In this document: positions 21,455 through 54,301 of the stretch, piece by piece
How the letters are laid out: each line of letters opens with the position of its first letter
Position numbering within the stretch: the first letter of the stretch is position 1
Virus record (IMG/VR): IMGVR_UViG_3300028886_000070
Span: 1-64,000 of that record
Length of the DNA: 64,000 nucleotides
Source of the DNA: a virus
Taxonomy: Duplodnaviria > Caudoviricetes
Reading direction: 5' to 3' (one strand)
Made by a program: the position numbers and the translations under genes
The notes under the pieces: model-generated
Seen by the model: the letters and a program-made list of their open reading frames with translations, nothing else
Told to the model about the DNA's origin: nothing
Database searches by the model: none

Positions 21455-22042
21455 TCAGTCGCACTCCATGACCTTCTTCATCGTGAACGACCCCCACACC
21501 GCCGCCGTGTCGACGACCGTGCAGGTGCCGAGTATGCGCGTCGGGCTCACGTGGCCGTATGCGTAGCACCCGCAGCCGAGCTGCCCGGCGACGTAGCCGG
21601 AAATCCTCTTGTCGCTCGAGCCGTTGCCGCCCGCCATCGTGACGATGAGGGTGTTGTCCTCGCCGTCGGCCAGGGCGTAGCTCGGCGTCGCCTCGATCGT
21701 GAGGAAGATCGAGGGCCTCTTGAAGACGCCCGTCCTGTTGTTCCCGACCGCGTGCCACCCGCCGCTTTCGACGACGGTCGCGTACTTCACGTACTGGCCG
21801 TTCGACATCTTGTGCGACTTGTTCACCATGTCGCGGAACTCGACGGACGGCTCGCCACCGTTCCTGTCGTGCTCGACGACTACCCGTCCCTTTATCTTCT
21901 GCACCTTGTACACGCGCTTCCCGAGCGACCGCGAGTTGTCCACGATGGCCGGGACCTTGAGGCTCATCGTGAGGTCGTAGTGGGTCGTCCTCGCGAAGAG
22001 GGCGAGCGGGAGCAGCATGGCCGCTATCACGAGCTTCTTCAT
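21455..22042 (-). CDS. secreted/exported beta-rich protein (195 aa)
   Basis: Signal peptide MKKLVIAAMLLPLALFA; AAAGGAG RBS; ATGA overlap. Confidence 0.75.
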   Translation of the reverse strand: MKKLVIAAMLLPLALFARTTHYDLTMSLKVPAIVDNSRSLGKRVYKVQKIKGRVVVEHDRNGGEPSVEFRDMVNKSHKMSNGQYVKYATVVESGGWHAVGNNRTGVFKRPSIFLTIEATPSYALADGEDNTLIVTMAGGNGSSDKRISGYVAGQLGCGCYAYGHVSPTRILGTCTVVDTAAVWGSFTMKKVMECD

Positions 22043-24600: not shown

Positions 24601-24616
24601 GGCGGCGGTTCCTCCT

Positions 24617-27600
24617 TCAGTAGTCCATCGGCTTCGGGGGCTCCACGGCGAGCGTCCGGTACGGGTTCTTGAGCGAGCCGCGTATCACGGCGCGCATGAT
24701 CGCGCGCTCCTCGGGCGTGAGGTTCTTCTTCCAGTCGCGGCCCTGCGCCTTCATGCGGTCGCGGATGGAGCGCATGACGGCGCGGCGCTTCGCCCCGAGC
24801 CTGTCGAGGACGCGGGCGACGCGGTTCAGCCTCTCGGTGTCGAAGGGCTTGGAGAGGTCGTCGGGCAGCGCCTCGAAGAACTCGCCGTACGCCTTCGTGA
24901 GGACGCGGCCGAGCGCCTTGTCGAGCTGCCGCCTCGGGTCGAGCCCGTTCCTCCGGGCGTCGGCGAGGATGTCGTTCACCGCGTTGCGGGCGAGCATCGA
25001 GCCGCGGCCCTTCCTCACGCCGAAGGCGTAGTTGGCGCGGTCGTTGTACGCCCACGCCGTGAGCGCCTTCTCGAGCCTGTCCTGGATGTTCGTCTGCGAC
25101 GCGCCCATCTGCACCGGCCCGAAGACCGGGAGGATTCCCGCGTCACCCGTGCGCGTCACGCCGCCCACGGTGAACGGGAGGAACGCCTGCGCGAGGTTGA
25201 AGAGCGCGCCGTCGGTCGTCGGGTCGAGCCAGCGCTCGAACTGCCCCTTGTCGTCCCACGGGAGCGCGCGGTCGAGGTAGGCGAGGTTGCGGCCCATGAT
25301 GCCCTCGAGGATGCGCTGCGTCGGCATCGAGAGCTTCGAGAAGAACTGCGCCGACGCGTCGTCGAACCAGCGGAAGAACTCCCAGCCCTGCTTGCCGAAG
25401 TGCATGTAGTAGCGGCGGTTCCTCGACGTGCGGTTCGCCGCGTCGTCGCCGGTGTACATCGGGACGAGCGACGGGACGAGCGATCCGACGCCCGCGCCCA
25501 TCGCGCCCCCGATCGCGCCCGTGAGCCAGTTGCCGCCCCGGCCCCCGAGGAACGCGCCGGCCGCGCCGCCGACCATCGCCGCGGCGGGCCCGCCGTTCTT
25601 CTTGAACGCCTTGAGGGCCCCGCCCAGCCTCGTGTCGTCGAAGCGCTCGATCGCCTTGAGGAGCGGGGTGAGGTCGAACGCCGTCCACCTCGTCTTGTCC
25701 TCGTTCTGCCACGTGAACCAGCGGTCGTCGTCATCGTCCCCGCCGCCGAGGCACTTGGCGAGCCCCATCGCGAGGCACTGCATGAGCGCCGGGACGCCGA
25801 TCATCACCGCGCCGAACATCCGGCACCAGCGGCCGAGGAGGTACTCGCGCTCCTGGCGCGTCACGCTGTGGCCGCCGAAGAGCATGTCCTCGATGACGCC
25901 GCCCCCGCCGGCCTCCCACGCGCCGCGGGTCCACTGCCAGGAGAACATGAGCGTGTTCATGAGCGCCCGGTTCATCGGGTGCGCCCACGCGTACCGCAGC
26001 GGGTCGATGCCGCCGATCTCGGCGTTGATGTAGCCGCCGTAGCGCTTGAGGTCGCGCACCGGGTCGAACGCCTTGCCGCGCGCCTGCGCCTGGTGGCGGA
26101 GCTTCATGGCGAGCTGGGCGATGACAGCGAGCTTCGTCGCGTTGAGCGCGTAGCTGAACGCCTTGTCGCCCTGCCGCAGCGCCATCGTCTCCATGATGCG
26201 CCCGAACTTCGCGGCGGTCTGCGCGCCGAAGCTCCTGCGCAGCGCCTCCTTGAGCCGGTTGATGTCCGAGGCCATCGCGGACTTCGTGGGCTCCATCGGG
26301 TTGACGAGCCGGCTGCTGAACGTGACGCCGAGCGCGGAGCCCCAGGCGTACAGCTCGGCGAGGAACGGGTCGTTCGAGTCCATCATGCGCATGATGTCCT
26401 GGAACCCGAGGAAGTCCTTCGTGATCCAGCCCTTGCCGCCGAACAGCTTCTGCACGCCCGCGAACAGCTCGGGGTTGGATTTCGCCCACTTGTCCATGAA
26501 CTCGAGGTTCGAGCACATGGTCGCCATCGCGCCCACGGCGCCGATGGGCGACTCCCACTTCGTCGCGAGCGGGAAGAAGAACGAGAAGCTGACGCTCATC
26601 GACTTCGACCAGGAGAGGCAGCGGTGGAGCGTGGCGCGCACCGCCGGGCCGCCGAAGCCGAGTATGCGCCCGGCCTGCGTGAACTGCTTGAGGTAGCCGA
26701 GCGCCTCGCCGCCGCCGAGGGCGTTGAGCGCGGACGACTCCTCGCCGAGCTGGTCGTCCTCGCGGACGAGCCACCCGTTCACGGACATCACGTCGCCGTC
26801 GTCGCCGGAGACGAGGACGTACCTCTTGCCGCCGATGCGCGTGTTGCCCTTGCCGTCCTTGCCCGCCTCGTGGAGCGCCGTGAAGATGTCGTGCGCGTTC
26901 TGCACGCCCGACTTCGCCGGGTCGTAGCCGTGGTCGGAGAGGCCGTTGTACTCGCTCCACCACCGGGCGATCTGGTGCCACAGCTCGTCCGGCACGCCCG
27001 AGAGCTCCGCCGCGTGCTGCGCCGGGTCGGCGTAGTACGTCGGCGCGCCGTCGTGCGCCGGGGTGAGCAGCATGTTGACGAGCGTCGAACGGGCCATCAT
27101 CGCGTTCGTGAGGCCGTCGATCGCCGCGTGGACCTTGTGCCCGATCTGGTAGTTCGCCGGCAGGACGCCGTAGCGGCGGAACGCCTGCTCGTCGGTGATG
27201 CCGACACGCCCGCCGAAGAGCTCGCCCGCCTGCTCGCGCCCGCTCTCGAGGGCCGCGAGGACGCGCTCCGCGCTGCGGACGTCGAAGCCCCTGCGGGCGC
27301 GGCCCTTCACCGCGTCCATGAGGCCGTTGCCCACGGCGCCCCAGCCGGAGGCCCTGCCGTCGATGCGCTGGTCCCACACGATGTCCACGAGCCTGTCGTA
27401 CACGGCGCGGGCGACGTCCGCCTTCGTCGCGTCGGCGGCGAGGACGAGCCCCGTCCTCGCGGAGCGGCCCTCGCCCTCCACGGCGAACTCGCCCGCCGCG
27501 ACGAGGTCCTTGAGCGCCATGCCGCGCTCCGGGACGCCGTACGCGTCGGCGAGCATGTCGAGGAGCGGCACGGCCTCCGAGGGGTCCAGGGACGCCACGG

Positions 27601-30600
27601 GCTTCGTCGCGTCCGCGGAGTTCGCCGCCTTCACGAACGCGGCCTCGGCGGCCGGGAGCTCGCCGAGCATCTCCTCGGCAGCGTTGCGGTTCGCCCGGAC
27701 GGCGTTGTACATGAAGACGCCCGTGCCGCGCCAGAACGGGAGCGCCGTCCCGAACGCGTTGAAGTAGCGCCCGTCGCCGTGCGTGAGCCACGGGTGCTGC
27801 TTCGCGAACATGACGGCCTTGCGGTACACGGCCATGAACTCGGAGGCGACGCGGTCGCGGTCGAGCATCTGCGGCGTGCGCCCGCCCTCCTTCGAGGTGA
27901 GCTTCGCGTACGCGGCGGAGGACTTGAACATCCTGTCGATGTCGTCGCACCGGACGGACACCGCCGCCGTCTTCCATATCCTGCGCCCGTCGGCCCAGCG
28001 CTTCCCGCCGGGGTTGTGCCCGACGACGAGGCCGGAGCGGCGGAGGTCGCCGATCACGAGGCTGTTGAAGAGCGCGGAGTCGTCCGGGCTCTCGGTGCGG
28101 CGGGCCATCCCGGCCCTCGCCCTGCGCATCGCGGCGACCGCCCCGTTCACCAGACGGTCGTACAGGTTGAGGCCGTCCCTGCCGATTATGCTCTCCGGGA
28201 GCTGCTTCGTGAGGCGGACGAGCGCGATTTCGAGCGCGTCCATCTGCTCCGCCGGGTTCCCCTCGTTCCAGCGGCGCATGACGCTCTCGCGGCTGTAGAA
28301 GTCCGCGCCCCTGTCGGCCATGTCCACGCTGAAGTAGAGGCGGTCGACGCCGGTGACGATCTCCTTCTGCCCGTTCGCGTGGCCGGCGCACATCTTCTTG
28401 TAGAGGTCGATCGTGCGGAGGTCGTCCTCGGTCATGCGCACGCGGCACGTGACGCGGCGGTAGTTGTCGAACTTGACGTACTCCGCGCCCTCGCGCCGGA
28501 CGACGGAGCCGTCCTCGAAGGCGTACTCGCCCTTCTGCTTGAGGAGCTTGAGAATCTCGCCGCCGTCCTCCACGTTGTCCCCGAAGAGGAACGAGTAGTA
28601 GTTCTCGAGGCGGGCGATCTCGCCCTTCACCGCCGCGTACTCGCGGTTCTCGGCGGCCATCATCGCGCCGATGTTGTCCTGCGCGCCGAACGACTTCCTG
28701 ACGAGCGACGACAGCCACGCGTCGCAGTTGTTCGCGATGAAGAACGACTGGTTGAAGTAGTCGACGAGGCCCTGGTTCTGGTCGACGAGGTTGGAGTCGC
28801 CGATCGCCTGGTTCGCCGCCCACTCCGCCGCCGTGACGTGCGGCGGGAGGCGGTGGCGGCGCATGATCTCGCGCTGGAACGCGATGTCCTCCGCCGTCGC
28901 CGGGACGACGTCGAGCTCCTGGTAGAACTTGGCCATCGCGGCGACCTGCCACGCGGTCGTGAGCGCGAGCTTGAGGGAGCGCTGCACGCCCCTCTCGCGC
29001 CACGAGCCGAGGAAGGTGCGCAGGTGCTCCGCCGACTTCGGGTTCTCCGTGTGGATGTTCTCCGGCGTGAGCTCCGCCTCGGGGTCGTCCACGTCGATCG
29101 GGCGGAGGTCGGCCATGAACCCGTTGTCGTCGAACGCCACGTCCTTGACGCCGGCACGCAGCGTGGAGATGACGTCGTTCACGATGCGCATCCCCTGCGT
29201 GCGCCGGTACTCCATGAGGCGCGTCTGGTCGCCGACGACGAGCAGCAGCTTCTCCATCATGTCGAGGTGCATCTTCACCTCGGCCCTCGCCGTGCCGCCC
29301 GTGGTGGACGCGAGGATGGAGCGGATCTCGTCGCGGGCCTCGCGGGCGAGCTCCGTCGCGGAGGACGGCTTCGCCGACATGATCCACGCGGAGACCTGGA
29401 ACTGCGAGGCGTGCCGCGCCTGGCGCGCGCCCACGGCGTTCGTGAGCACGTTGCCGGTGCGCCCGTCCACGCGGGTCTGCGCGAGGAAGCTCGACTCGAG
29501 CGAGTGGTACATCCGCAGCGCCGCCTCGAACGCGAGGGACTTCGCGATGTCGAGATCGTCGAACGCGGCGGCCGCCTCGGGGTTGATCGTGACGAGCGCG
29601 CGGCGGAGGCCGTGCAGCACGGCGGCGCGGTCGAGCGCCTCCGTCGCGGCGGAGTCCCACACCGGGGCCGCGTACTTGGCGCGGATGTACTCGAGCGGGC
29701 GCTGCCAGCTGCCGCCGGAGCGGAGCCCCTCCTCGAGCGCCTGGTTGATCATGCGCGCCGTGCGGTAGAAGTCGCTCGCCTCCACCATCGGGTAGGTGGC
29801 GGCGCGGGCCGCGGCGGCGACCTCGGCGTCGCGCGCCTCGTTCGAGCCGGGGACGACCGTCTCCGTCCTGCGCGTCGCGTAGGACTCGCCGGACAGGGCG
29901 CCCTTCACCTCGAGGCCCGCCGCCTCGGCCATCTCGGCGCGGAGCGGGGCGTAGGCGGAGAGGACGTCCTTGAGCGCGTCCGCGCCGGTCGCCGGGTCGT
30001 CGAGCATCTCGGCGAGGACCGACTCGACCTCCCGGCTCGCGTCCACGTCCTCCTGGGAGAACACGGCTCCCGGGGTGTCCTCGATCTCCTCGACGGAGCC
30101 GGTCGCCTCGCGGGGCGCGGTCGCCTCGGCGAGGAGTTCGGCCTCGGACTTCCCGGCGTACATGGCGGCGCGGGTCTCGGCGAGGCGCGCCCTCACCGCC
30201 TCCGCGACGGAAGCCTGGTCGAGGTTCGCGAGGTCCTCGCCGAGCAGCTCCTTCCTTCTCGCGTCGGAGGTCTGGGCGATGCCGTGGACGGCCATCTTGA
30301 AGATGGTGTCCTCGGGCATCTCCTCGTAGCTGAACCCGTGGACGAGCGCCTCGAAGAGCCCGCGCAGGAAGTCGAAGATGCGGCGGAACACGCCGCGCAC
30401 CTCGGCGGTCTCCTCGGTGTTGCCCTCGACCCACTTGCGGAACGCCTCGGCCATGCGCTCCTCGGTCTCGCCCGTCCAGGCGTCCGAGCCGTCGGCGTTG
30501 AACCGCTTCGCGAGCTGCGACCTGTCCTCGGCGGACAGGACGCCGCACGCGTCGAACATGCGCATCATGGCGTGGAAGTACTCGTGGTACACCTTCGTGC

Positions 30601-36600: not shown

Positions 36601-39600
36601 CGCGGAGCGACGGATCGTCGATGCCCACGCGGTCCTTGCGACGCCCGTTGATCGAGACGCCCACCACGTCTTGCGACGTGTAGCGCCCGGTGTTCGCGAT
36701 GTCGGCGAAGTGCTCCGCGTACGCGGCGGTCGAGCCGGAGCCGAAGCCGATGAAGCGGGTGATGCCGCCGAGCTGGTTGAACTTGGCCTGGTCCTTCGCC
36801 TTGTGCCTGTTGCCGGTCGACGGCAGCACGTGGCTCCCCGTCCTCCCCTTGCGCTCCCTGTACGTCGGGTTGTCCTCCGGCGTCTGGTCCTGCGCGGAGG
36901 GGAGGAACGAGCCGTCTGGGAGGATGCGCACGGCGCGCGGCACCTGGAGGAGCGTGGACGAGCCGTGGTCGCCCGAGAACACCTGCACCCAGTACACGGG
37001 CTGCGACGTGTCGGCGTACGCCTTGCGGCACGCCTCGCGCAGCTCCACGCTGTCGTAGCTCGCGGACACGTTCTTCGCGCAGATGGGCGTGTGCCTCGCG
37101 TCCGGCCAGCAGGCGTCCTGCCTGCACCGGTTGATCTCGGCGGGGTCGGTGACGCCGAACGCCCTCTCGCACACCTCGGCGAACGAGACGCCGCCGAGCT
37201 TGCCGTCCTTGTACAGCCACTTCGCCACGATCGGCACGAGGTCGCGGGGCGATATGACGACGGACGAGCCCTCGGAGTCGCGCTCCGGGTCGATCTCCGC
37301 CGTCATGATCGTGGTCGGCAGGGCGTCGGAGAACGTCGTGAGGAACGTCATCAGCGGGTCGGAGATGGACGGCGAGCGCTTCGCCTCGCGCAGGGACGAG
37401 CGGCGCGGGTTGCCCGTCGCGAACGCGGCGGTGAACGCGGTCGCCACCTCGGAGCGGCGCACCGGGCCGGAGCCCGACTCGGCGAGCGCGTCGAGCGTGG
37501 AGCACACGGTCTCGACGAGGTCGATGTCCTCCGCCGCGCCCTTCTTGTTCTCGCGGAACGAGACGGAGGCGGCGAGGTCGCGTATGCGCTTCTCGGTGAG
37601 ATCGGCCCACGCGTTGTGCGCGAGGCCGGACGCGAGGGCGCTGTAGAGCGGGGACTCCGTGCCGAACTCGGAGGCGAGTATCTCGGCGACGAGCGACGCG
37701 TTGCGCTCGAGGACGGAGCGGGCGGACGAGCCCTGCCCGAGGGCGGCGAACTCGCCGGTGTCGCGCAGCTCGCCGACGAGCGTGCGCAGCCTGTCCGCCG
37801 CGTCGCGGAGCTCCTGGCGGGACTTGCCGACTATCGCGGCGAACCCGTTCGTCACGATGTTCTCGCCGACCTTGCCGTGCGCGGCGCGGAACGCCGGGGC
37901 CATGCGGCCCGTCTCGCGGTTGAGCCGGATCGGGGACGCGGCGACGGAGTGCGCCATGAGCTTGCCGAAGCGGATGCGCGCCTCGCGGGGGAGCGCCGAG
38001 AGGTACGCGACGAGGAACGCGCCGCGCCTCGAGAGCGGGTAGCCGCCCGCGTCCGCGAGGAGCGCCTTCACGTGCCTGTCCGCCGGGGAGTCCGCGCTGT
38101 CGAACTCGAGGAGCGTCTCGCGGTGGAGCGCGTCGTGCTCCGCCTGCGTGCGGCCCGCCGGGTTCATCTTCGGGTTGAGGAGGCGGAACAGGAAGCCGAT
38201 CGCGTCCCTCGCCTCGTCGGGGTAGTCCTCGGCGAGCTCGGCCGCCCGGTCGACGCCCATGCGCGACGCCTCGCGGGCGAGGCGCAGGAAGCCCTGGAGG
38301 TTGCGGCCCGTCTCGGGCGAGACGCGCTGCGCGAGGGCGAGGAAGTCCTCCATCGCCTCGGAGTTGTACTCGGCGAGCGCCTGGTCGTTGAAGTTGTCGG
38401 ACGAGACGTCCTCGCTCTCCTTCTCCTCCTGGGAGAAGCGCCACTTCGCGCCGGAGACGACGAAGCCGTCCCAGCCGGCGTTCGCCCGGATGCGCGCGGC
38501 GTCGGCGACGCGGTACGCGACGCGGATGTCGTCGAGCTCCTCGTCCGCGAGCGCCGGGAACATCCGGCGCGCCGTCTCCGCGACGGTCTCCTCGGAGACG
38601 CCCTCGCCGAGCGAGAGCGCGGAGCGGACGCACACGTTCACGGCGAGGCGCGCCTGGCTCCTCGTCATGCGCCGGCCCTCTATCGTCTCCGCGCCGTAGC
38701 GCTCGGAGAACGCGCGCTCCTCGGAGCGGGCCCTCGTGCCGAACGCGGACGGGAGCGGCGCCGGCTCCTCCTCGCCGTACATGGTGGAGAAGCTCTCGCC
38801 GTCGTCGGCCGTGCCGTTGTCGGAGGCGTTCCTCGCGCCGTCGGCGGCCGCGGAGCGTCCGCCCTTCAGCACCGACTGGACGGGCTTCGTCGCCTCGTCG
38901 AGCGCGCGCTTCTTCTCGGTGAGGTCGTTCGCGGCGGAGTCGAGCGCGGTCTGCGCGTCGGCGATCGCCCCGGGCGCCGGGGCCTCGGCGCGCCCGCGCC
39001 GTGCCTCGAGAAGCTGTCGGCGGAGGCCCACGACCTGTCCGCGCAGGGTCTCGACCTGGCGGGCCGCGTCCTCGTACTGCGCCTTCACGCGGGCGTACTC
39101 GTTGAGGGACTCGTCGACGGTCGCGGCCTTCTTCATCTCCCGGACGGACGCGCGGAGGGCGATCCTCTGCTGCTCCGTGGAGCCCGAGTCGGACGCGAGC
39201 GCGTCCTCGGCGACCTGGCGGAAGAACTCCGCCGTCGCGGCGGGCACGTCGCGGCCGCTGTCGAGCACCTTGCGGACGACGCCGTAGAGCTGGCCGACGA
39301 AGGTGTAGTGCCCGAGGAGGGCGGCGTCCGGCTCGCCGGACTCGGCCTGCCTCGCGGACGAGCGCAGCGCCTCCTTCTCCTCCTCGGTGATGACCGGCGC
39401 GCCGGACTTCGCCATCGACGAGAGGCGCGTGATGCAGCCGTTGAGGAAGGCGGTGTAGCCGAGCCCGCCGGGGAGCGACTCCCTCACGGCGTCGCGCAGG
39501 GCGTTGGGGTTCCCCGCCGCGTACGACATGAGCTGGCGGATGCCGCGCTGCGAGCCCGCGTCCGCGACGCCTCCCGCCGCGTTCTCCACGGCGGCGTCGA

Positions 39601-42600
39601 GGAAGCCGTTCCCGCCGAGCGTGAGGTCGACGAGGTTGGTGAAGTCCATGAACGACGCGGCGCGGCGGACGGCGGGCGCGATCTTCGCGACGGCGCGGAG
39701 GTACGGGGACTCCGCGTACTTCCTGTCCTGGTACGCGCAGAACGCGCCGGCGAGCGTGACGAACCCGGTCGGCGTGAGGCCGACGCCGCGACGGACGACG
39801 GTGCGCCCGTCGGAGGTCGTGGCCTCGCGGTCCACCTCCGCGGTGCACTCGCGGCGGAACGCGGCGAGGCTCCTGACGAGCTCCGTGTCGTTCGCGTCGC
39901 GGGCCTCCTGCATGGCGGTCTCGGCGATGGCGTCCACCTCGTGCACGAAGTCGGAGACGACGCCGTTGAGCGCGTTGCGGATGAGCCGCCCGTGGGACGC
40001 GTAGGCGCGCATGAGCACCGCGTTCACGAGGCCGCTCGTCATGTCCGGGTTGACCGACGGGTCGACCGGGACGACGATGTCCGAGGAGTTCGCGGAGAGC
40101 TTGCCGACGTTCACGGAGAGCGTGTACTTCTTCGGCGAGTACGCGGAGAACTCGCCCGCGTACTTCGACATGGTGTCGACCGAGACCTTCCTGTCGGCGA
40201 GCAGGCGCTCCCCGACGCGCATGTAGCCGTTCGGCCCCCAGACGTTCATCCACGTCGAGCGGACGGTCTTGTCGGACACGCCGGCGTCGCCGATCACGAC
40301 CTGCGCCTCCGGGTCCCAGTGCGACGCGATCGAGAGCTCGCGGGCGAGACGCTCGCGCGCCCAGTCCTCGTCGACGAAGTGCCCGTCGGCCTTGCGCCGC
40401 AGCATCGGGTGGAGGCGCGCGCGGGGCGCGTTCTCGCCGAGGGCGGCGATGTAGTCCGGCGCGAGGTCGAGCTCCCGGATCATCTTGAACATGTCGGTGC
40501 ACTCGACGACCTTGGCCTGCGAGAGGAGGATGCGCGCCTTCGTCGGCGCGTAGCCGAGGCGGGACATCTCCTGGCGAAGCGCCTCCTCGTCGTCGAACGT
40601 GCGGAGGTCGCGCTCGGCGCGCCCGTTCACGGTCTTGATGCCGAAGTCCACCTCGAAGCGCCCGTCCTCCGTCTCGCGGGCGGTGAGCTCCGCCGCGCCG
40701 GTCGAGTGGACGCGGAGGTCGTCCTCCGTCGCCCGCGTCGTCTTCGCGAAGTGGCGGAGGTCGCCGCGGTCGAGCATCGTCGCGAGCTTCGCCATGTTGA
40801 GAATCTTGCGGTCGCGCTCGGCAAGGCCCGCCGCCGTCCCGTCGAAGCGGAGGTTGAGCGACCACGCGACGGACTCGAGCGCGCGCCTGTCGAGGTCGGG
40901 GTGGTCGACGGAGTCGAACTTCGCGAGGTAGTCGACGACGGGCATGCTGACGCGCCCGACGGACGAGCTGTAGATCGCCTCGCGGAGCGGCACCTCGCCG
41001 TCGATGTTCTGGACGTACGCGAGGTTCTGCCCGCCGATCATGTGGAGCGCGCAGTCGTAGATCGCCGCGTCCACCATGTCGGACGACGCGGGGAGGCGCA
41101 CCATGTTGAGGATGCGCATGTCCGCGTCGAAGGACTTGGTGAGCCTGCGCGTGAGGATGTCCGCCGTCGCGATGGCGAGCTTCTCCGCCGTCCTGTCGAC
41201 GGCGTCCCTGTGGGATTCGTAGAAATCGGACGCGGAGACGGCGCTGTCCTGGTCGAACGCGCCCGCCGCCTCGTCGAAGCGGACGAACGACACGGAGCCG
41301 TCCTCCGCCGTCACGTGCTCGAGGCCCTCGGACTTCGCGACGTGCGCGAGCGCCTGGTCGCGGATGCGCCCGTCGGAGAACGAGCGGAGCTGGTGGGCGG
41401 CGAGGTACGCGCCCATGATCTGCTTCGCCCTGCCGGCGAACGCCTCGGCGGCCGCGTCCGTCACGGCCTTGCGCGAGGGCGAGAACGACCCGTTGCCGCG
41501 TCCCGCCGCGGCGGCCTCCGCCGCCATGCGGTCGCGCAGCACGTCCGCCTGCCTGCGCCACTCCGCCCGGAAGCCCTCCTTGAGGGCGCGGCACACGTTG
41601 GCCGAGAGGCCCATGTCGCGCGCCGTCCACTGCGCCGGGTTCGTCGCGGCGAGCGACATGTCGCCGGAGACGACGGCGCCCGCGAGGCCGACGATCTTGT
41701 GCGCGGCCTTGCGGAACCACGTCGGGTCCTCGCCCTCGAGCGGGGCCTCGGCCTCGTAGAGGACGCGGGCGAGCTCCGGGGCGTAGTCCACCATGGCGGC
41801 CTGCCCCTCGAGCGTCTCGCCCGCCTGCTCCGAGGAGAGCGCCGGGGTGCGGCCCTCGATCTCGTCGCTCGCAAGCTGCTGGCTCGCGAGGAGCGGGACG
41901 TTCACGATGCTGTCGGCGTTCGCCTTCGCGGCGTCCGAGAGGGTGCCGAGGAACTTCTGGTGGCGCTCCTCCCTGCGCGTCGAGACCTTCTCCCGCGTCT
42001 CGATCTCGGAGCGGATCGAGTCCGCCGTCTCCTTGTCCCCGGCGGCGTCCGCCTCGTCGAGGCGCGCCTGGAGCTCCGCGACCTCCCTGCGGTCCTGCTC
42101 CGCCATCGCGTCGTGCGCGGCGAGGTACGTGCCGAACTTCATCGAGACGACGCTGTCGTGCCGGAGCGCGTCCTCGATGCCGGCGAGGCGGGCGCGTATC
42201 TCCTGTAGCTTGCCCCCGCCGCCCACGGCGGACTGGAGGCGGAGCGTCGCGGCGCGCGTCACCATCGGCATGGCGAAGCCGACGGCCTCGGCGGTGAGCT
42301 GGTCCCAGCCGGGGTACAGGCCCTTCACGGCCTCCTTGAGGTTGGAGAAGAAGTCGTGCTCGGCGCGGTCGTCGAGGCCGAGCATCCCCTTCACGACGTC
42401 GCTGTAGCGCTCCTCGAACATCTCGCCGAGGATTCCGTCGTACCCCATCTGCTCGTACATGTTCATCACGGTCTCGGGGCCGATCTGGTGCTTGGCCATC
42501 CAGTTCGCGACCGCGAAGCGGGCGTAGGACTTGTACTGGAGGTCCTTCACGCCGTCGTCGTACATCTTCTTGAGCGCCTTCTGCGCGAACGCCTCGACGT

Positions 42601-44341
42601 TCCCGCCGACCGCGTCGCGCAGCTCCTGGCGGAGCCCGGACGACGAGCCGGACATGACGGCGGTGCGGATCGCGGAGCGGTCGGCCTCCGCCGTGACGCC
42701 GAGCGCGCGGATGACGGCGTCGGCCTTCTGCCCCTGCGCCTTCTTGAGGAAGGACTCGCGGGAGCCGAAGACGTCGCCGATCCACTGGCGAATCTTGCCG
42801 CCGAACGCCACGGCGGTCTCGCCCTCCGTCGGGACGATGCCGAGAATCTCGGACGAGGCGGGGCGGACGAGGCCCCTCATGCCCGCGTTCTCGAGGCCGA
42901 GCCCGGCGGCGCGGACGAGCGACTTGAGGCCGCGGCCCGTGTTCTCCGAGACGTACTCGAGGAGGTTCATGCCGAACGCGATCGACTCGGCGTTCTCCAT
43001 GAGCTCGCGGTTGCCGGTCATCAGCGCGGACTGGCGGAGCGACAGCTCCGACTGGCTCACGGTGCGGTCGGCCCCCGCGGCGGCCGCGACGAGCGGCTGG
43101 GCGGCGTAGGCGTTCGGGGCCATGAGGAGGGCGCCCTTTATCGGGGCCTCGACGAAGAACGTGCCGACGGCGTCGGCGAGCGCGCGGCCCGCCTTCGTGT
43201 GGTTCGTGAAGAGGACGGTGGACTCCTCCGCGCCCCACGTGCCGAAGTCCATGAGGCCACGGGAGACGTTCTGCCCGAGCCACTGGGTGAAGCGGTTGAG
43301 GTTGTTGCGCATCGCGCCGTGCGCGTTGCGGGCGAGCATCTGCGCGAACTCGTGCTCCGCCCTCGCCTTCGCCATCGACTGAATGGCCTCGGCGGACATC
43401 CCCTTGTACATGGGGTTGCCGGTCATCGTCTTCGACGCGACGAGCCCGGCGACGCGGTTCACGATGCGCTCGCGCGCCTCGCCCTCCGCGATGCCGGCGA
43501 AGGTCTTCCCGGCGGCCTTCTCGACGGACTCGCGCGCGAAGTGCTCGGTGGCCTCGCGGGCGAGCGTCTTGGAGGCGCGGGTCATCCCGAGGTGGATCGC
43601 CTCCTTCGAGCCTCCGTAGAGCGCGGTGCGCGCCGCGCCGAGCGTGCCGCCGCTCGCGAGGAACTCGACCATGAAGCCCGGGGCGGCGCGGATGATGTCG
43701 CCGACCGTCGCGCCCCAGGAGCCGTTCGAGCGGTACTCCTGCTCGGCCATGTAGAGGCGCGTCTTGATGAGCTCGTCGTCCGAGACGGGTTCGCCGTCCT
43801 GGAGCTTCTTCATCGTCTCGTTCACTGTCACGGCGTCGGCGATGGAGCCGCCGACGGAGGCGACGAGCCCGAGGAACGGGAGGTCGGACCACTGGAAGTC
43901 GGTGATGGCGTCGAGGAACCCGCGCTTCACGCCGCGCCGGTTCTTCTCGCCGAGCTCGAGGAGCCTGCGCCCCGCCTCCGTCTTCTGGAGGGTCTCGGCG
44001 GCGATCTCCTTGCCGAACACGCTCAGGCCGGCCACGGTGTCGGCGGTGTAGTCCGCCGTCATCCCGGTGCGCTCGCCGTAGCGGACGGTCTTCTCGCCGA
44101 ACGGGTCGGTGTCGAGCTGGAAGATGTCGCTCGCCCTGCCGATCCTCTTCGCGGCGGGGTCGGGCCCGTCGGCGTAGTTCACCTGGGGCACGAGGGGCTC
44201 CTCGGCCTGCGCGAGGAGGTCGGGCTCGCGGTTGGGCGAGGAGAGCCAGGACATGTGGGCGGAGTACAGGGAGTCTTCCGCGGGCGGAACGGAAGAGCCG
44301 AGGCCCCCGAAGGCGCCCGGCGCGTCGTCATTCAATGCCAT
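24617..44341 (-). CDS. giant (6574 aa) virion polyprotein: putative two-barrel RNA polymerase plus zincin protease plus Rossmann/SLOG-like domain
   Basis: GAAGGAGG RBS and own promoter; LKAH/FGKS/SYKIG lysines (aa 2851, 2866, 2913), PRTPS (R3344), GCDHDGDK (aa 3402-3406), HEYFH...EERMAEAF (aa 4586 onward); located in the ejected-protein block. Confidence 0.8.
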   Translation of the reverse strand: MALNDDAPGAFGGLGSSVPPAEDSLYSAHMSWLSSPNREPDLLAQAEEPLVPQVNYADGPDPAAKRIGRASDIFQLDTDPFGEKTVRYGERTGMTADYTADTVAGLSVFGKEIAAETLQKTEAGRRLLELGEKNRRGVKRGFLDAITDFQWSDLPFLGLVASVGGSIADAVTVNETMKKLQDGEPVSDDELIKTRLYMAEQEYRSNGSWGATVGDIIRAAPGFMVEFLASGGTLGAARTALYGGSKEAIHLGMTRASKTLAREATEHFARESVEKAAGKTFAGIAEGEARERIVNRVAGLVASKTMTGNPMYKGMSAEAIQSMAKARAEHEFAQMLARNAHGAMRNNLNRFTQWLGQNVSRGLMDFGTWGAEESTVLFTNHTKAGRALADAVGTFFVEAPIKGALLMAPNAYAAQPLVAAAAGADRTVSQSELSLRQSALMTGNRELMENAESIAFGMNLLEYVSENTGRGLKSLVRAAGLGLENAGMRGLVRPASSEILGIVPTEGETAVAFGGKIRQWIGDVFGSRESFLKKAQGQKADAVIRALGVTAEADRSAIRTAVMSGSSSGLRQELRDAVGGNVEAFAQKALKKMYDDGVKDLQYKSYARFAVANWMAKHQIGPETVMNMYEQMGYDGILGEMFEERYSDVVKGMLGLDDRAEHDFFSNLKEAVKGLYPGWDQLTAEAVGFAMPMVTRAATLRLQSAVGGGGKLQEIRARLAGIEDALRHDSVVSMKFGTYLAAHDAMAEQDRREVAELQARLDEADAAGDKETADSIRSEIETREKVSTRREERHQKFLGTLSDAAKANADSIVNVPLLASQQLASDEIEGRTPALSSEQAGETLEGQAAMVDYAPELARVLYEAEAPLEGEDPTWFRKAAHKIVGLAGAVVSGDMSLAATNPAQWTARDMGLSANVCRALKEGFRAEWRRQADVLRDRMAAEAAAAGRGNGSFSPSRKAVTDAAAEAFAGRAKQIMGAYLAAHQLRSFSDGRIRDQALAHVAKSEGLEHVTAEDGSVSFVRFDEAAGAFDQDSAVSASDFYESHRDAVDRTAEKLAIATADILTRRLTKSFDADMRILNMVRLPASSDMVDAAIYDCALHMIGGQNLAYVQNIDGEVPLREAIYSSSVGRVSMPVVDYLAKFDSVDHPDLDRRALESVAWSLNLRFDGTAAGLAERDRKILNMAKLATMLDRGDLRHFAKTTRATEDDLRVHSTGAAELTARETEDGRFEVDFGIKTVNGRAERDLRTFDDEEALRQEMSRLGYAPTKARILLSQAKVVECTDMFKMIRELDLAPDYIAALGENAPRARLHPMLRRKADGHFVDEDWARERLARELSIASHWDPEAQVVIGDAGVSDKTVRSTWMNVWGPNGYMRVGERLLADRKVSVDTMSKYAGEFSAYSPKKYTLSVNVGKLSANSSDIVVPVDPSVNPDMTSGLVNAVLMRAYASHGRLIRNALNGVVSDFVHEVDAIAETAMQEARDANDTELVRSLAAFRRECTAEVDREATTSDGRTVVRRGVGLTPTGFVTLAGAFCAYQDRKYAESPYLRAVAKIAPAVRRAASFMDFTNLVDLTLGGNGFLDAAVENAAGGVADAGSQRGIRQLMSYAAGNPNALRDAVRESLPGGLGYTAFLNGCITRLSSMAKSGAPVITEEEKEALRSSARQAESGEPDAALLGHYTFVGQLYGVVRKVLDSGRDVPAATAEFFRQVAEDALASDSGSTEQQRIALRASVREMKKAATVDESLNEYARVKAQYEDAARQVETLRGQVVGLRRQLLEARRGRAEAPAPGAIADAQTALDSAANDLTEKKRALDEATKPVQSVLKGGRSAAADGARNASDNGTADDGESFSTMYGEEEPAPLPSAFGTRARSEERAFSERYGAETIEGRRMTRSQARLAVNVCVRSALSLGEGVSEETVAETARRMFPALADEELDDIRVAYRVADAARIRANAGWDGFVVSGAKWRFSQEEKESEDVSSDNFNDQALAEYNSEAMEDFLALAQRVSPETGRNLQGFLRLAREASRMGVDRAAELAEDYPDEARDAIGFLFRLLNPKMNPAGRTQAEHDALHRETLLEFDSADSPADRHVKALLADAGGYPLSRRGAFLVAYLSALPREARIRFGKLMAHSVAASPIRLNRETGRMAPAFRAAHGKVGENIVTNGFAAIVGKSRQELRDAADRLRTLVGELRDTGEFAALGQGSSARSVLERNASLVAEILASEFGTESPLYSALASGLAHNAWADLTEKRIRDLAASVSFRENKKGAAEDIDLVETVCSTLDALAESGSGPVRRSEVATAFTAAFATGNPRRSSLREAKRSPSISDPLMTFLTTFSDALPTTIMTAEIDPERDSEGSSVVISPRDLVPIVAKWLYKDGKLGGVSFAEVCERAFGVTDPAEINRCRQDACWPDARHTPICAKNVSASYDSVELREACRKAYADTSQPVYWVQVFSGDHGSSTLLQVPRAVRILPDGSFLPSAQDQTPEDNPTYRERKGRTGSHVLPSTGNRHKAKDQAKFNQLGGITRFIGFGSGSTAAYAEHFADIANTGRYTSQDVVGVSINGRRKDRVGIDDPSLRAELDAATKAGAVIVADAKAYRSSSSYNVGEKELEQYLGSNGYAEIEGSGIWVPEGRDTATYDQLAKGVSKAIGLDRMFTDAKRSAISSLEAQGTGMIGVETQAVEPPAPEGEPVKAVLKGSTLYDEKGLYVLALPATVKKLAALDPGGTLTQKFTPASKGRENARGLGASAVVEHEGRVYQVSYDVGEDGLANSVTYTRVDGRPPEVKRRFGENRVHILKIRRSERMADAKAQKKFDKLAAEAWKGSTFMRGYGAQALKEMAQDPRSATLKAHVVSTQGEDLFFGKSLSVATGEEGGQFLEGSSERLVMDYLEKWRGSDKLSTDFLTDFDSYKIGVANSKALRVGGKAVMEHVFSVLESLAASGVKFDRMTGDELDEKVGPLRVEDLAEGTVRDVKLSELMPGVVANSVDGFDGETAIDLSYQENGAMAYTVANVSHTSGIPAEPGRAARNYEVDAVTMATALTRGGWMGEDGTTVPELLDLVANWGLVAGTVYSDPRMAASLRRQSQSLLELARYGESPRGQNALEELARMVWSKTRQASNLPLSGIDAPLVSSGSFCDDEGNVFCHSKSPMHRAMMQGSTLFTEDEARFFGVPRRVALCNVNVRSNGFRYGWFLDEEAFESSEAFAADIAAAELDAAGSPGADTRGHVRALALGRAFTRLRDLQRRAEPGREGADEAKAEAKKLREAIAGVFLDHHGQKISEHGDRYVERFGIEDLFMRDADRGRGDVFDLSAVQFGDDAVTLDADGKSHLFLGGTMFGLPRTPSYNGSMWLQVVRAGLPVTEIEYEGTDSEGKAAKRWKVGRDAMVSPDPTTNAILGCDHDGDKTKLYMLTVDADGSTRFSNPPAPSADASTFASDPSARDRYLGDLAAAGFLQKTVWNDEEQREEDVPDGESPEGWYYRVAEPVRRRVSNSFVRGLFSMARRLPTDAEEIGADGRARVVPRASEKGGARRKFLGGIASRPTNPFPTSNKDAVMEHALPPVLDADHTIGDPETASVASAAALDASKARGVIVSLARSLHLAWTSGFFTSGDMSLFNGDESPADWFRFMYHVDGLSNATFDDLKEQMCGRLGWTSGMMDTVITELLINRPGGGRLPVTDEDFAKVLASYSSEVKSKGRFWQMLRASRVGDMDARRYVCSAVLGGGDRLYRSNVVDAFGIEGSGTAKDPWRASGDPSTYGAALVAAVESVADGLAEGGGRKAVSAIVEGVARGRGSNPMAGYVAWLVREELGLEKGESGATAMPDGSSQDIVAALAASPRVRDFAEWILKRQVLMSARSFGNSVNYLVADPGDDMATGRRDRTVQAFKSVVQRLGDDAASRDRAVLMLPNGRTYDLMSAFERMHAATRLSYEIGDGLRTVAARAITAAERRFSQTFPEQFRDAAEDVPGKRRALAKLLLRDGLDSWDRLALQSNAQQLPYVCGLFRSMADLSVEVGDTFVADGRGLYSALKAIASGARDALQWASPNGDFSLDPGVLEMRQGIEAMFTLMYELMSTSREYNRPDGNKAIAYVRLAPDRAYGEVEVEDERTGKPKTTLPYGEAGRGLSRLVANFQANDDESILRIRAMFAEVIAGAAFGGTRHHNEDAADASSIITRTFSLSRESIEQLVTEKLGRKFEGKSDEERLDALDPETRRVVVKARAALFRLEEVFGEGVAVTPSMMFGQLIPAYTVLTSRTLGAPTPQSPSIVNLLPARYYESLSDAEAELNAADEGFVDLLVSTDWAPKSLARRKRLAKIGAKAKRRLVADTSFSEEDYDSLAGYAADTAASLAGSDSFYPAVSGALARVRDKWRRGVSEGRENPDFRNSCDIFADDVFSDILDYMDGGWGDSYRRAASDSAPARAGEAAGGFSVPQAKALKDGQYDPRVAEVALAMSAMLGSWASVEYSGGPSFVIRGALRGDAGANARAVLSVTVGEGPLCDTPEQVSALADSRDYAESLCASADLGITPDDFLRMPRRVREGLVRRYGVGGATMNRVVSSVDARGIATLCGAIRLPADAGTKVYHEYFHAMMRMFDACGVLSAEDRSQLAKRFNADGSDAWTGETEERMAEAFRKWVEGNTEETAEVRGVFRRIFDFLRGLFEALVHGFSYEEMPEDTIFKMAVHGIAQTSDARRKELLGEDLANLDQASVAEAVRARLAETRAAMYAGKSEAELLAEATAPREATGSVEEIEDTPGAVFSQEDVDASREVESVLAEMLDDPATGADALKDVLSAYAPLRAEMAEAAGLEVKGALSGESYATRRTETVVPGSNEARDAEVAAAARAATYPMVEASDFYRTARMINQALEEGLRSGGSWQRPLEYIRAKYAAPVWDSAATEALDRAAVLHGLRRALVTINPEAAAAFDDLDIAKSLAFEAALRMYHSLESSFLAQTRVDGRTGNVLTNAVGARQARHASQFQVSAWIMSAKPSSATELAREARDEIRSILASTTGGTARAEVKMHLDMMEKLLLVVGDQTRLMEYRRTQGMRIVNDVISTLRAGVKDVAFDDNGFMADLRPIDVDDPEAELTPENIHTENPKSAEHLRTFLGSWRERGVQRSLKLALTTAWQVAAMAKFYQELDVVPATAEDIAFQREIMRRHRLPPHVTAAEWAANQAIGDSNLVDQNQGLVDYFNQSFFIANNCDAWLSSLVRKSFGAQDNIGAMMAAENREYAAVKGEIARLENYYSFLFGDNVEDGGEILKLLKQKGEYAFEDGSVVRREGAEYVKFDNYRRVTCRVRMTEDDLRTIDLYKKMCAGHANGQKEIVTGVDRLYFSVDMADRGADFYSRESVMRRWNEGNPAEQMDALEIALVRLTKQLPESIIGRDGLNLYDRLVNGAVAAMRRARAGMARRTESPDDSALFNSLVIGDLRRSGLVVGHNPGGKRWADGRRIWKTAAVSVRCDDIDRMFKSSAAYAKLTSKEGGRTPQMLDRDRVASEFMAVYRKAVMFAKQHPWLTHGDGRYFNAFGTALPFWRGTGVFMYNAVRANRNAAEEMLGELPAAEAAFVKAANSADATKPVASLDPSEAVPLLDMLADAYGVPERGMALKDLVAAGEFAVEGEGRSARTGLVLAADATKADVARAVYDRLVDIVWDQRIDGRASGWGAVGNGLMDAVKGRARRGFDVRSAERVLAALESGREQAGELFGGRVGITDEQAFRRYGVLPANYQIGHKVHAAIDGLTNAMMARSTLVNMLLTPAHDGAPTYYADPAQHAAELSGVPDELWHQIARWWSEYNGLSDHGYDPAKSGVQNAHDIFTALHEAGKDGKGNTRIGGKRYVLVSGDDGDVMSVNGWLVREDDQLGEESSALNALGGGEALGYLKQFTQAGRILGFGGPAVRATLHRCLSWSKSMSVSFSFFFPLATKWESPIGAVGAMATMCSNLEFMDKWAKSNPELFAGVQKLFGGKGWITKDFLGFQDIMRMMDSNDPFLAELYAWGSALGVTFSSRLVNPMEPTKSAMASDINRLKEALRRSFGAQTAAKFGRIMETMALRQGDKAFSYALNATKLAVIAQLAMKLRHQAQARGKAFDPVRDLKRYGGYINAEIGGIDPLRYAWAHPMNRALMNTLMFSWQWTRGAWEAGGGGVIEDMLFGGHSVTRQEREYLLGRWCRMFGAVMIGVPALMQCLAMGLAKCLGGGDDDDDRWFTWQNEDKTRWTAFDLTPLLKAIERFDDTRLGGALKAFKKNGGPAAAMVGGAAGAFLGGRGGNWLTGAIGGAMGAGVGSLVPSLVPMYTGDDAANRTSRNRRYYMHFGKQGWEFFRWFDDASAQFFSKLSMPTQRILEGIMGRNLAYLDRALPWDDKGQFERWLDPTTDGALFNLAQAFLPFTVGGVTRTGDAGILPVFGPVQMGASQTNIQDRLEKALTAWAYNDRANYAFGVRKGRGSMLARNAVNDILADARRNGLDPRRQLDKALGRVLTKAYGEFFEALPDDLSKPFDTERLNRVARVLDRLGAKRRAVMRSIRDRMKAQGRDWKKNLTPEERAIMRAVIRGSLKNPYRTLAVEPPKPMDY

Positions 44342-44391
44342 GAGGTTCCTCCTTCAGGCGGGTGCACGGCGTGGGAAAGTTCATGGGCGAT

Positions 44392-44420
44392 ATTATACCA
44401 TAATCGCCCCGATTACTCAA
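44392..44420 (-). promoter_or_regulatory. sigma70-like promoter, class II, for the giant gene
   Basis: TTGAGT-17 nt-TATAAT with TATGG immediately before the -10. Confidence 0.7.
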
Positions 44421-44430
44421 CCGCGCTTCG

Positions 44431-46509: not shown

Positions 46510-46519
46510 CTTCCCTCCG

Positions 46520-49549: not shown

Positions 49550-49559
49550 GCCGTTTCTC

Positions 49560-50567: not shown

Positions 50568-50584
50568 GGCAGGGTCTCCGTGTC

Positions 50585-50618
50585 GGGAGAGGCGCGGGCT
50601 CGCGTCCGCGCCCCTCCC
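50585..50618 (-). terminator. GC hairpin after the capsid gene (attenuator/stabiliser, no U tract)
   Basis: GGGAGAGGCGCGG / CCGCGCCCCTCCC inverted repeat. Confidence 0.5.
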
Positions 50619-50623
50619 TCTCG

Positions 50624-52811: not shown

Positions 52812-52819
52812 GAGGGTAT

Positions 52820-52859: not shown

Positions 52860-52877
52860 GCCTGCCTCGCGCGGACT

Positions 52878-54287: not shown

Positions 54288-54301
54288 GTGTCAATGTCTC
54301 C

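Follow-up and report, generated by a model that had tools for sequence, protein, structure and literature searches.

The giant open reading frame (ORF; P0001) is encoded on the minus strand at 24617..44341 of the window, by which we mean the whole 64,000-nucleotide stretch of DNA analysed, and runs from an ATG start through 6,574 codons to a stop. It takes up 30.8% of the window, in agreement, down to the exact coordinates, with the original prediction of an uninterrupted 6574-aa ORF filling 31% of this DNA. The window DNA is 70% GC, and long frames arise in it by chance too. The genome belongs to an uncultured 95-kb phage (65-70% GC) and has two convergent arms, as in crAss-like phages; the giant block lies at an arm end beside the strand switch, here as in the crAss-like Dulem virus 41, and downstream of the giant ORF the arm holds a single further gene. 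This downstream gene (22039..24600, minus strand) starts 16 nt past the stop of the giant ORF, encodes an 853-aa protein and is kept in the same place in relatives, one of which (L006) has a segment of the 853-aa protein fused to the end of its giant ORF. Residues 695-835 of the protein (nt 22096-22518, minus strand) form a phage lysozyme domain (PF00959, E 9e-18), which also weakly matches the PHROG 'internal virion lysozyme motif'. On the upstream side lies a 692-aa gene of no known family (44431..46509, minus strand), kept in this position in relatives L007 and L008. The lysozyme-bearing gene foreseen at one flank was found, whereas the upstream genes, expected to resemble internal proteins, gave no family matches at all.

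A sigma-70-type promoter, TTGAGT-17-TGGTATAAT with an extended -10 element, is located upstream of the giant ORF (44392..44420, minus strand), followed by a ribosome-binding site, GAAGGAGGA (44347..44355, minus strand), 5 nt before the ATG at 44341; the expectation that the ORF has its own promoter and ribosome-binding site held. This promoter is the only sigma-70-like site in 44000-47000 (shuffles give 0.0); the minus-strand block has two further sites of this TGGTATAAT class, with TGGTATAAT occurring four times in the window against 0 expected. Host-type promoters precede middle, late and first plus-strand genes alike, and the analysis of direct repeats and k-mer counts gave only the host-type TGATACAAT motif and no separate phage-polymerase promoter class. 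Because host-type promoters are present throughout and no phage-polymerase class was found, promoters do not tell which transcripts a polymerase of this phage would make.

As originally noted, no gene for a tape measure, a sheath or a tube was recognised by Pfam or PHROGs among the proteins scanned. The same databases recognised no tail tube, chaperone or baseplate genes, although most neighbours lack any match, and no capsid, portal or terminase genes in the 95-kb record, where divergence beyond detection is possible; six-frame genome searches for terminase with PF03237 and PF03354 found nothing. Neighbouring genes at 47948-60499, with products of 533, 691, 469, 985 and 786 aa, are candidates for the capsid, portal, terminase and any tube or sheath. 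The neighbours of the giant gene did not match the block proteins of Dulem virus 41. One tail-fibre-like match together with the lysozyme gene suggests that the minus-strand block may be a virion module.

The GC contents at codon positions 1, 2 and 3 of the giant ORF are 0.67, 0.48 and 0.98, respectively. A word search gave 45 clusters of relatives (5,965-7,508 aa), an exhaustive phmmer search gave 61 representatives, and 74 full-length cluster representatives of 5,965-7,611 aa (median 6,518 aa) were obtained, which are 28-99% identical to the giant protein and lie on phage contigs of about 90-98 kb. These representatives are collinear with the giant protein from end to end except at aa 2500-2800, come from different samples and sources, and share a common start (MA...) and a common end (...DY). 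The codon-position pattern and the 74 end-to-end relatives indicate that the frame is truly coding. An assembly or gene-calling artefact, in which genes were joined by error or a chance high-GC frame was called, might be suspected from the very long chance frames of high-GC DNA, exemplified by an antisense frame of 3,293 aa opposite the giant ORF and overlapping antisense ORFs of 2,600-3,300 aa, and from the two or three genes that encode the region in some relatives. Nevertheless, a third-position GC of 0.98 with a normal pattern at the first two positions, as well as conserved, collinear, independent full-length clusters, refutes this explanation, to which we give almost no credence; the mis-assembly or fusion that would have overturned the original prediction is ruled out by the same evidence.

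The centre of the giant protein, aa 2790-3890 (32672..35974, minus strand), contains a two-barrel RNA polymerase core, identified from a structure model, structural matches and invariant residues. AlphaFold2 modelling of aa 2790-3899 gave a confident structure (pLDDT 85.7, pTM 0.86) with two double-psi beta-barrel domains in one polypeptide. The first barrel (aa ~2793-3013) bears the invariant residues K2851, H2853, K2866, D2908 and K2913, of which the three lysines are basic and fall within the first-barrel range of the model. A helical connector leads to the second barrel (aa ~3299-3409), which carries the invariant R3344, P3346 and S3347 in the sequence PRTPS (aa 3343-3347), an R-x-P element ahead of the metal-binding DxDGD loop, DHDGD (aa 3402-3406; 34124..34138, minus strand). 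The last part of the core is a helical region with an invariant DGxxNxxFDDxK at aa 3635-3646. Across 73 full-length sequences there is no variation at D3402, D3404, G3405 and D3406 or at R3344, P3346 and S3347, and a pattern search found the GxDxDGD-type motif in 66 of the 74 representatives (GCDHDGD in 55) and no such motif in the other eight.

When the polymerase model was compared with BFVD, a library of viral models, the best matches were chunks of giant proteins of crAss-like phages (E 1e-3 to 6e-3, prob 0.84-1.0), one of which is named 'Putative RNA polymerase'. Against the PDB, Foldseek returned no significant match with the model, 6vr4_A having the top TM-score (0.29, E 0.54), and hhalign of the family profile with the RNAP of Dulem virus 41 gave a probability of 0.3%. 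No significant sequence similarity to known RNAPs was seen in Pfam, PHROGs, NCBIfam or PDB sequences; likewise, Pfam, PHROG and PDB sequence searches revealed no T7/N4-type RNAP match anywhere in the giant protein, and a DxDxD scan of all long ORFs gave no candidate for a second polymerase gene. Overall, the confident model, the specific structural matches and the invariant catalytic residues support the transcription function originally proposed for this protein: in its modelled fold, aa ~2790-3890 is a single-chain two-barrel RNA polymerase of the clade comprising QDE-1, crAss gp66 and P23-45, with predicted activity.

About 700 residues past the polymerase core lies a zincin-like metallopeptidase region (aa ~4500-4660; 30362..30844, minus strand), in which H4586, E4587, H4590, D4606, E4627, E4628 and A4631 are invariant. 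HEYFH (aa 4586-4590) and EERMAEA (aa 4626-4632) would correspond, as judged from the sequence, to the HExxH helix and the Glu-ligand helix. The family HMM matches aa 2312-2400 of a 2,474-aa protein of Dulem virus 41 (E 5.8e-13), which has HEAFH at 2327 and whose gene precedes a DFDVD polymerase gene; tblastn also reached this zincin (E 1e-3). Natural split forms mark the module borders. The stand-alone forms P0052 and P0054 end just past the zincin region, the latter being a complete 2,768-aa ORF that equals aa ~1925-4639 and is flanked by stops and non-coding DNA, while another split form consists of a 4,836-aa ORF followed by the 1,516-aa P0105. Contig-end fragments, such as P0107, with its start at base 23 of the contig, were left out of the split-form count.

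The remaining regions are conserved to different degrees. The N-module, aa 1 to ~1800 (38942..44341, minus strand), belongs to no known family and contains the invariant motifs EYxSExxG (462-469) and GYDGxxGExxEERY (633-646); it is closed by a poorly conserved Ala/Glu-rich linker (aa ~1600-1900), at which a separate protein starts in some relatives. Next comes a conserved pre-polymerase region (aa ~1900-2480; 36902..38644, minus strand), also present in the stand-alone P0054, and then a variable accessory slot (aa ~2480-2790; 35972..36904, minus strand), whose residues are present in only 18-51% of relatives. In relative L006 the slot holds a NADAR-like domain and in others insertions of up to 471 aa; for the insert of the phage studied here, the only similar sequence is a hypothetical protein from Vibrio phage Kuja, and no stand-alone homologues of the insert (176-562 aa) were found. 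The C-module (aa 5700-6574; 24620..27244, minus strand) is the most conserved part of the giant protein and is mostly helical, with a DDDDD run and a conserved C-terminal ...DY, a conserved hydrophobic helix (aa 6179-6197; nt 25751-25807, minus strand) and a glycine-rich stretch (aa ~6255-6300). Structure models covered aa 5375-6574 in addition to the polymerase core, and the C-terminal model was too poor for fold assignment. The hydrophobic helix and the glycine-rich stretch are the only features that could point to a role as a DNA-ejection conduit.

About 5,000 of the 6,574 residues match nothing known: neither families nor solved structures correspond to the first ~2,400 aa, to aa 3900-4450 or to the final ~1,900 aa, the most conserved of all. 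Pfam, PHROGs and NCBIfam scans over the full length of the giant protein gave only sub-threshold matches to TMP_C, RsbRD_N, phrog_167 and a T3SS translocon model, the last scoring 15.5 bits against a cut-off of 540. A phmmer search of the whole protein against PDB sequences found nothing, and profiles built from five sequences each for the N, middle and C blocks yielded only coiled-coil noise in the PDB. Among 50,697 phage records, tblastn with three pieces of the protein hit only the Kuja hypothetical protein (through the slot) and the Dulem virus 41 zincin, and no RNAP. The host-takeover or anti-defence domains anticipated in this protein were not identified in the studied genome's own copy. 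Its description as a polyprotein or polyvalent protein fits the invariant zincin motif, the split forms that break at linkers and the exchangeable slot with a NADAR-like domain in a relative, and self-cleavage of the chain may be part of this picture.

The closest known arrangement is that of crAss-like phages, in which Cellulophaga phage phi14:2 carries gp65 (a zincin protein), gp66 (RNAP, PDB 6VR4) and gp67 as a block, and other members have fused 'polyprotein' forms. Fused RNAP polyproteins are already known from crAss-like phages, and the giant protein is a larger, reordered variant of them: it is three times the size of gp66, as originally estimated for the phi14:2 vRNAP, and its polymerase precedes the zincin, the reverse of the crAss gene order. 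No counterpart of its ~2,400-aa N-module or ~1,900-aa C-module was seen in the Dulem virus 41 block, the crAss block used for comparison; its polymerase has no detectable sequence similarity to crAss-like RNAPs, and its catalytic loop is DHDGD rather than DFD(I/V)D. According to 10.1101/2020.03.07.982082, crAss-like phages typically have Ile or Val as the fourth residue of the catalytic motif (DFDID), whereas this position is Gly in the giant-protein family. In addition, PHROGs and Pfam detected no crAss capsid, portal or terminase family among the proteins scanned from the studied 65-70% GC genome.

Other known systems share some of these features. Thermus phage P23-45 encodes gp96 (5,002 aa), a tape measure that bears a virion RNAP at its N terminus (PDB 8H2M/8H2N; PMC10770324). 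However, the polymerase is central in the giant protein, and the phage studied here has no recognised tape-measure context, siphovirus tail genes or second, non-virion polymerase gene. The virion RNA polymerase gp50 of coliphage N4 (~3,500 aa) and the phage polyvalent proteins with an MPTase-zincin hub (PMC5512222) follow a like logic: the capsid carries a giant polymerase to which a zincin is fused, accessory enzymes are optional, and neighbours act in ejection; packaging would be the presumed part of this likeness here. In contrast, the N4 polymerase is T7-like, with a right-hand rather than a two-barrel fold, and outside the polymerase core the giant protein gave no sequence or profile match to any PDB chain. 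Neurospora QDE-1 and plant RDR2 are eukaryotic RNA-silencing polymerases of about 1,000-1,400 aa with no zincin or phage context, which are 9-12% identical to the giant protein over aligned residues.

Several explanations of the giant gene can be weighed against these data. It might encode a non-virion enzyme that stays in the infected cell as an RNA polymerase or scaffold for a late or non-coding transcript subset. We regard this as unlikely, since an enzyme needed during infection is expected among early or middle genes, while this gene has a late-class promoter and ends a block that holds tail-fibre-like and lysozyme-bearing genes; such phage RNAPs are also small, the P74 gp62 chain having about 600 aa, and are not joined to zincins or to thousands of extra residues, and the phi14:2 polymerase and its two neighbouring proteins are virion components. 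If the product were instead a tape measure joined to a virion RNA polymerase, like P23-45 gp96, the phage would have a very long non-contractile tail, with the C-terminal part serving as ruler and channel. Tape-measure matches do exist (phrog_167, E 0.0088; PF24165, 18.7 bits against a cut-off of 27), but they are far under threshold and fall in glycine-rich hydrophobic sequence. The polymerase is not N-terminal, the single gene after the giant ORF leaves no baseplate or tip block, tube and chaperone genes were unrecognised, the protein looks less like a single long helical ruler than like conserved globular modules strung together, and its nearest structural relatives in the viral library are crAss-like proteins. 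We therefore consider a tape measure slightly more doubtful still.

The polymerase could also be a structural relic within a polyvalent effector, an injected carrier of a protease and accessory domains that synthesises no RNA. That about 5,000 of the 6,574 residues lie outside the polymerase, together with the exchangeable domains of the slot and the zincin, which is the hub domain of phage polyvalent proteins (PMC5512222), would agree with such a carrier. However, relatives down to 28% identity keep the metal-binding aspartates, the RxPS element and the lysines of the first barrel without change, which is unexpected for an inactive relic and makes this explanation quite improbable. More credible, although still rather unlikely, is an independent, undescribed phage lineage, not Crassvirales by sequence, that welded its ejected machinery into one ~720-kDa chain. 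Such a chain would combine a part that crosses the envelope, an active two-barrel polymerase of the G type (DxDGD), a protease for processing and a slot in which anti-defence domains can be swapped; in that case, the ~5,000 unexplained residues would hold new folds that serve packaging and delivery through the envelope. P0052, a copy of 3,380 aa whose motifs are intact, is found in a bacterial-looking island adjoining a reverse transcriptase (L021), hinting that the polymerase-zincin module may also be used outside phage particles, for example in defence or in a mobile element.

On balance, the giant ORF probably represents a virion-type RNA polymerase cargo block fused into a single gene, and its product is most likely a very large, highly divergent counterpart of the polymerase that travels as cargo in crAss-like phage particles. 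That the protein is packaged into virions and ejected is suggested by where its gene lies, by the class of its promoter and by analogy. In the sequence of events we propose, host RNA polymerase would transcribe the giant gene and the rest of the minus-strand block late, from the TGGTATAAT promoter. The giant protein would then be packed in the capsid and expelled with the DNA into the cell, alongside the 692-aa and the 853-aa lysozyme-bearing proteins, and the injected polymerase would initiate transcription of the phage genes ahead of the host enzyme or without depending on it. The zincin might cut the chain at poorly conserved linkers near aa ~1700-1950 and ~4650-4750, which we propose as cut sites because some relatives encode separate proteins there; alternatively, it might act on the cell wall or on host proteins. 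In the least supported step, the C-terminal ~900 aa, with the hydrophobic helix and the glycine-rich stretch, may have a role in packaging or in crossing the envelope.

With an RNA polymerase carried in the virion, a phage can begin its programme without relying on the host enzyme. To our knowledge, only a few types of such polymerases are known in detail, namely those of N4, crAss-like phi14:2, P23-45 and phiKZ-like jumbo phages, and the giant protein is among the longest phage proteins that we know of. The family adds a deeply divergent virion-type RNAP branch with a cellular-type DxDGD loop, which standard annotation missed (no Pfam, PHROG or NCBIfam match). At least 74 diverse full-length relatives, together with the natural split forms that mark module borders, provide a map of the polymerase-zincin unit (aa ~1900-4700). 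The findings raise the question of how over 6,000 residues in one chain fit into a capsid and are threaded out of it. The exchangeable slot before the polymerase, NADAR-like in one relative, is a place to seek injected counter-defence enzymes, and the residues with no recognisable fold form a sizeable reservoir of phage protein structure.

The giant ORF lies at 24617-44341 on the minus strand, with its ATG at 44341 and its stop codon at 24617-24619, and comprises 6,574 codons in an uninterrupted frame. The window DNA has a G+C content of about 70%, and in such DNA chance frames reach thousands of codons (an antisense frame overlapping the giant ORF has 3,293); the length of the ORF alone is therefore no proof of a gene. 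The G+C contents of its three codon positions (0.67/0.48/0.98) follow the pattern of a true high-GC gene. A word-indexed search of 5.8 billion proteins yielded 45 clusters (5,965-7,508 aa, 28-99% identity), and an exhaustive phmmer search with residues 2700-3899 yielded 61 cluster representatives, of which some 50 have lengths of 6,000-7,600 aa. The full-length representatives (n = 74; median 6,518 aa) mostly start with MA, and both BLAST coverage and a 73-sequence MAFFT alignment showed collinearity of the relatives with the giant protein over its whole length, save residues ~2500-2800. Contigs bearing full-length relatives reach 90-98 kb, and the 95,069-bp IMG/VR virus record, of which the window covers bases 1-64000, is 99% complete by CheckV. 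The codon-position pattern and the full-length relatives thus demonstrate that the single ORF of the original prediction is a true gene, while a mis-assembly, accidental fusion or other artefact, the first two of which that prediction had listed among its possible refuters, is ruled out by the codon-position G+C, the contigs of up to 90-98 kb and the end-to-end collinearity of all 74 representatives. Because the GC3 of the gene is extreme, it is overlapped by shadow ORFs of 2,554-3,293 codons, two antisense (24401-34282 and 34346-42208, plus strand) and two in other minus-strand frames (25731-34202 and 36228-43892), which could be miscalled as genes.

The gene had also been proposed to possess its own promoter and ribosome-binding site, and both are present. 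A sigma-70-like promoter, TTGAGT-17-TGGTATAAT, is located at 44420-44392 (minus strand), the single such site in 3 kb, with none arising in shuffles, and the ribosome-binding site GAAGGAGGA stands 5 nt before the ATG on the same strand. The TGGTATAAT element occurs four times in the window versus zero expected, three of the four copies being in the minus-strand block.

No significant match emerged when the whole giant protein was compared with Pfam, PHROGs, NCBIfam and the sequences of the PDB. DHDGD at residues 3402-3406 is its sole DxDxD motif apart from an acidic run. The fold of residues 2790-3899, predicted from an alignment with 22 relatives, was confident (pLDDT 85.7, pTM 0.86). A Foldseek search of this model against the PDB returned no significant match, the top TM-score belonging to gp66, the RNA polymerase of the Cellulophaga crAss-like phage phi14:2; in a viral model library, fragments of giant proteins from crAss-like phages matched best (E 1e-3 to 6e-3, prob 0.84-1.0), and one of these carries the annotation of a putative RNA polymerase. 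Across 73 sequences with identity down to 28%, K2851, H2853, K2866, D2908 and K2913 of the first barrel and R3344, P3346, S3347, D3402, D3404, G3405 and D3406 of the second barrel are invariant. These are the residues that such RNA polymerases need. We treat the modelled polymerase fold and its motifs as findings rather than as part of the proposed mechanism, and likewise the gene and its family, the zincin motif with its homology, the variable slot, the split forms and the promoter.

The zincin is marked by HEYFH (residues 4586-4590), D4606 and EExxA (4627-4631), all invariant among the aligned relatives. In Dulem virus 41, a crAss-like phage with a circular genome of 92.9 kb, the family profile matched a 2,474-aa 'structural protein' in its C-terminal HEAFH region (E 5.8e-13), and the following gene of that phage encodes a 2,247-aa protein with GSDFDVDK, the crAss polymerase motif. 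The zincin is thus the only part of the giant protein related by sequence to the crAss polymerase block. The two elements have changed places, however: in crAss-like phages the zincin gene comes before that of the polymerase, whereas in the giant protein the polymerase comes first.

Naturally split forms were found among the homologues. P0054 (2,768 aa), a complete ORF between stops and non-coding DNA, corresponds to residues ~1925-4639 and keeps both DHDGD and HEYFH; P0078 and P0081 (~5,080 aa), two candidate split forms, have a Met start and align from residues ~1840-1980 through to the end. On a 49.4-kb contig of the NCBI metagenome assembly GCA_024712465.1, a 520-nt gap separates a 4,836-aa ORF bearing PF25176 (DUF7831) from the subsequent 1,516-aa P0105, and this two-piece arrangement may reflect genuine splitting, the insertion of an element or faulty assembly. 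The split borders match the least conserved stretches (residues 1700-1900 and 4700-4800), and the giant ORF is therefore best understood as a fusion of three units: the N-module, the polymerase-zincin unit and the C-module. A homologue of the polymerase-zincin unit, P0052 (3,380 aa), is encoded on a 30-kb Logan contig from SRR6824184 (L021, 6799-16941); it keeps DHDGD and HEYFH and shows 39% identity to the window's protein across the aligned polymerase region. Its setting resembles a bacterial chromosome, with an AAA_15/AAA_21 ATPase, a TPR/DUF7017 protein and a reverse transcriptase (RVT_1) upstream and an alpha-2-macroglobulin/PbpC pair downstream, and the G+C content is 45-57% in the upstream genes, 53-56% just downstream and 65-70% in the alpha-2-macroglobulin/PbpC region. 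Possible explanations of this locus are a defence or mobile island, the remnant of a prophage and a chimeric contig.

Just before the polymerase core, a slot at residues ~2480-2790 is present in just 18-51% of relatives and is the chief place of large insertions (up to 471 aa). In the relative at locus L006 it holds a NADAR-like domain (PF08719, E 8.8e-6, under the Pfam cut-off), and other relatives bear PF08902 or PF25176 somewhere along the protein. For the insert of the window's protein, the one match was to a Vibrio phage Kuja hypothetical protein (33% identity, E 1e-6), and no stand-alone homologue of similar size was found. The N-terminal ~2,400 residues, residues 3900-4450 and residues 4760-6574 had no match even by five-sequence profiles against PDB sequences. 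The last ~900 residues, the best-conserved part of the protein, contain a single conserved helix of hydrophobic character (6179-6197), a DDDDD run and a stretch rich in glycine; the model of residues 5375-6574 was poor (pLDDT 57.9), and its structural matches were generic helices. The protein ends in MDY (window 24620-24625, minus strand), and 66 of the 74 full-length relatives end in Tyr, 56 of the 74 in Asp-Tyr. That the last residue of so long a chain (~6,500 aa) is conserved suggests a signal for docking or recognition, e.g., in packaging.

The genome is organized as two arms that converge. The plus-strand arm begins at ~81 kb, passes over the end and the start of the record and reaches ~21 kb; it carries small genes followed by replication genes, including those for a SNF2-type helicase, a PD-(D/E)XK exonuclease, a family A DNA polymerase followed by an HNH endonuclease, and a primase-like ATPase. 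A second class of host-type promoter, TTGAC-N17-TGATACAAT, is found at three of these genes, as near-identical copies (continuing with ACG) at 7670-7698, 8140-8175 and 13690-13706 (plus strand). Two copies lie near each other, one immediately ahead of the region annotated as DNA polymerase A and the other within its beginning, and the class is distinct from the TGGTATAAT class of the minus arm. The minus-strand arm, from 81 kb down to 22 kb, consists almost wholly of genes without matches, apart from a tail-fibre-like hit (phrog_15437, E 1e-8) and a CxxCxxCC protein. The arms also differ in composition, with 64-67% G+C and GC3 of 0.83-0.92 in the plus arm (window 1-21000) versus 68-73% G+C and GC3 up to 0.98 in the minus arm (window 22000-64000). 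Between them, past the window at genome 78560-79122 (loci L003/L004), lies an AT-rich non-coding region of ~560 bp, which is likely a control or origin region; a promoter-like site, TGGTACAAT, stands there ahead of the first plus-strand gene.

In the minus arm, a single gene comes after the giant one. This last gene (22039-24600, minus strand), starting 16 nt past the giant gene's stop, encodes an 853-aa protein with a C-terminal phage lysozyme domain (PF00959, E 9e-18), as expected for the lysozyme-bearing neighbour originally described, and a weak match to the PHROG 'internal virion lysozyme motif' (E 1e-4). In relatives, the lysozyme-bearing gene and the upstream 692-aa gene are both kept beside the giant gene. 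At locus L006 (21425-21592), the giant ORF carries at its C-terminal end, as a fusion, the segment equivalent to residues 279-336 of the 853-aa protein, and little is left of the downstream gene beyond the lysozyme domain. This movement of modules between the two genes suggests that they act together.

Giant virion polymerases fused with a zincin and accessory modules are a known kind, reported for crAss-like phages (PMC7886860) and for N4-like polyvalent proteins (PMC5512222). A full-text literature search found no paper on the present family, which is a separate one recognised by no library. Also new are its two large conserved modules without counterparts, its cellular-type DxDGD loop, the reversed polymerase-zincin order, and a size three times that of phi14:2 gp66.

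Other readings of the giant protein deserve consideration. A tape measure of the P23-45 kind that contains a polymerase has the same ingredients (PMC10770324), but the tape-measure matches of the giant protein are only sub-threshold and a tail-gene context is missing: in agreement with the original claim about tape measure, sheath and tube, searches with Pfam, PHROGs and terminase profiles recognised no gene for a capsid, portal, terminase, tube, sheath or tape measure anywhere in the genome. We consider this reading quite improbable, and a polymerase acting outside the virion unlikely as well. A polyvalent effector with a dead polymerase is very improbable, because the catalytic residues are invariant.

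A caution applies to the targets of the polymerase: the late, middle and first plus-strand genes all seem to have host-type promoters, and repeat and k-mer counts revealed no separate promoter class for a phage polymerase. Overall, by analogy with phi14:2, we infer that the giant protein would be made late from its host-type promoter, packed in the head and expelled with the DNA along with its two conserved neighbours, and it might have a conduit role; its polymerase would then transcribe phage DNA, and the zincin may free the units by cutting at linkers.
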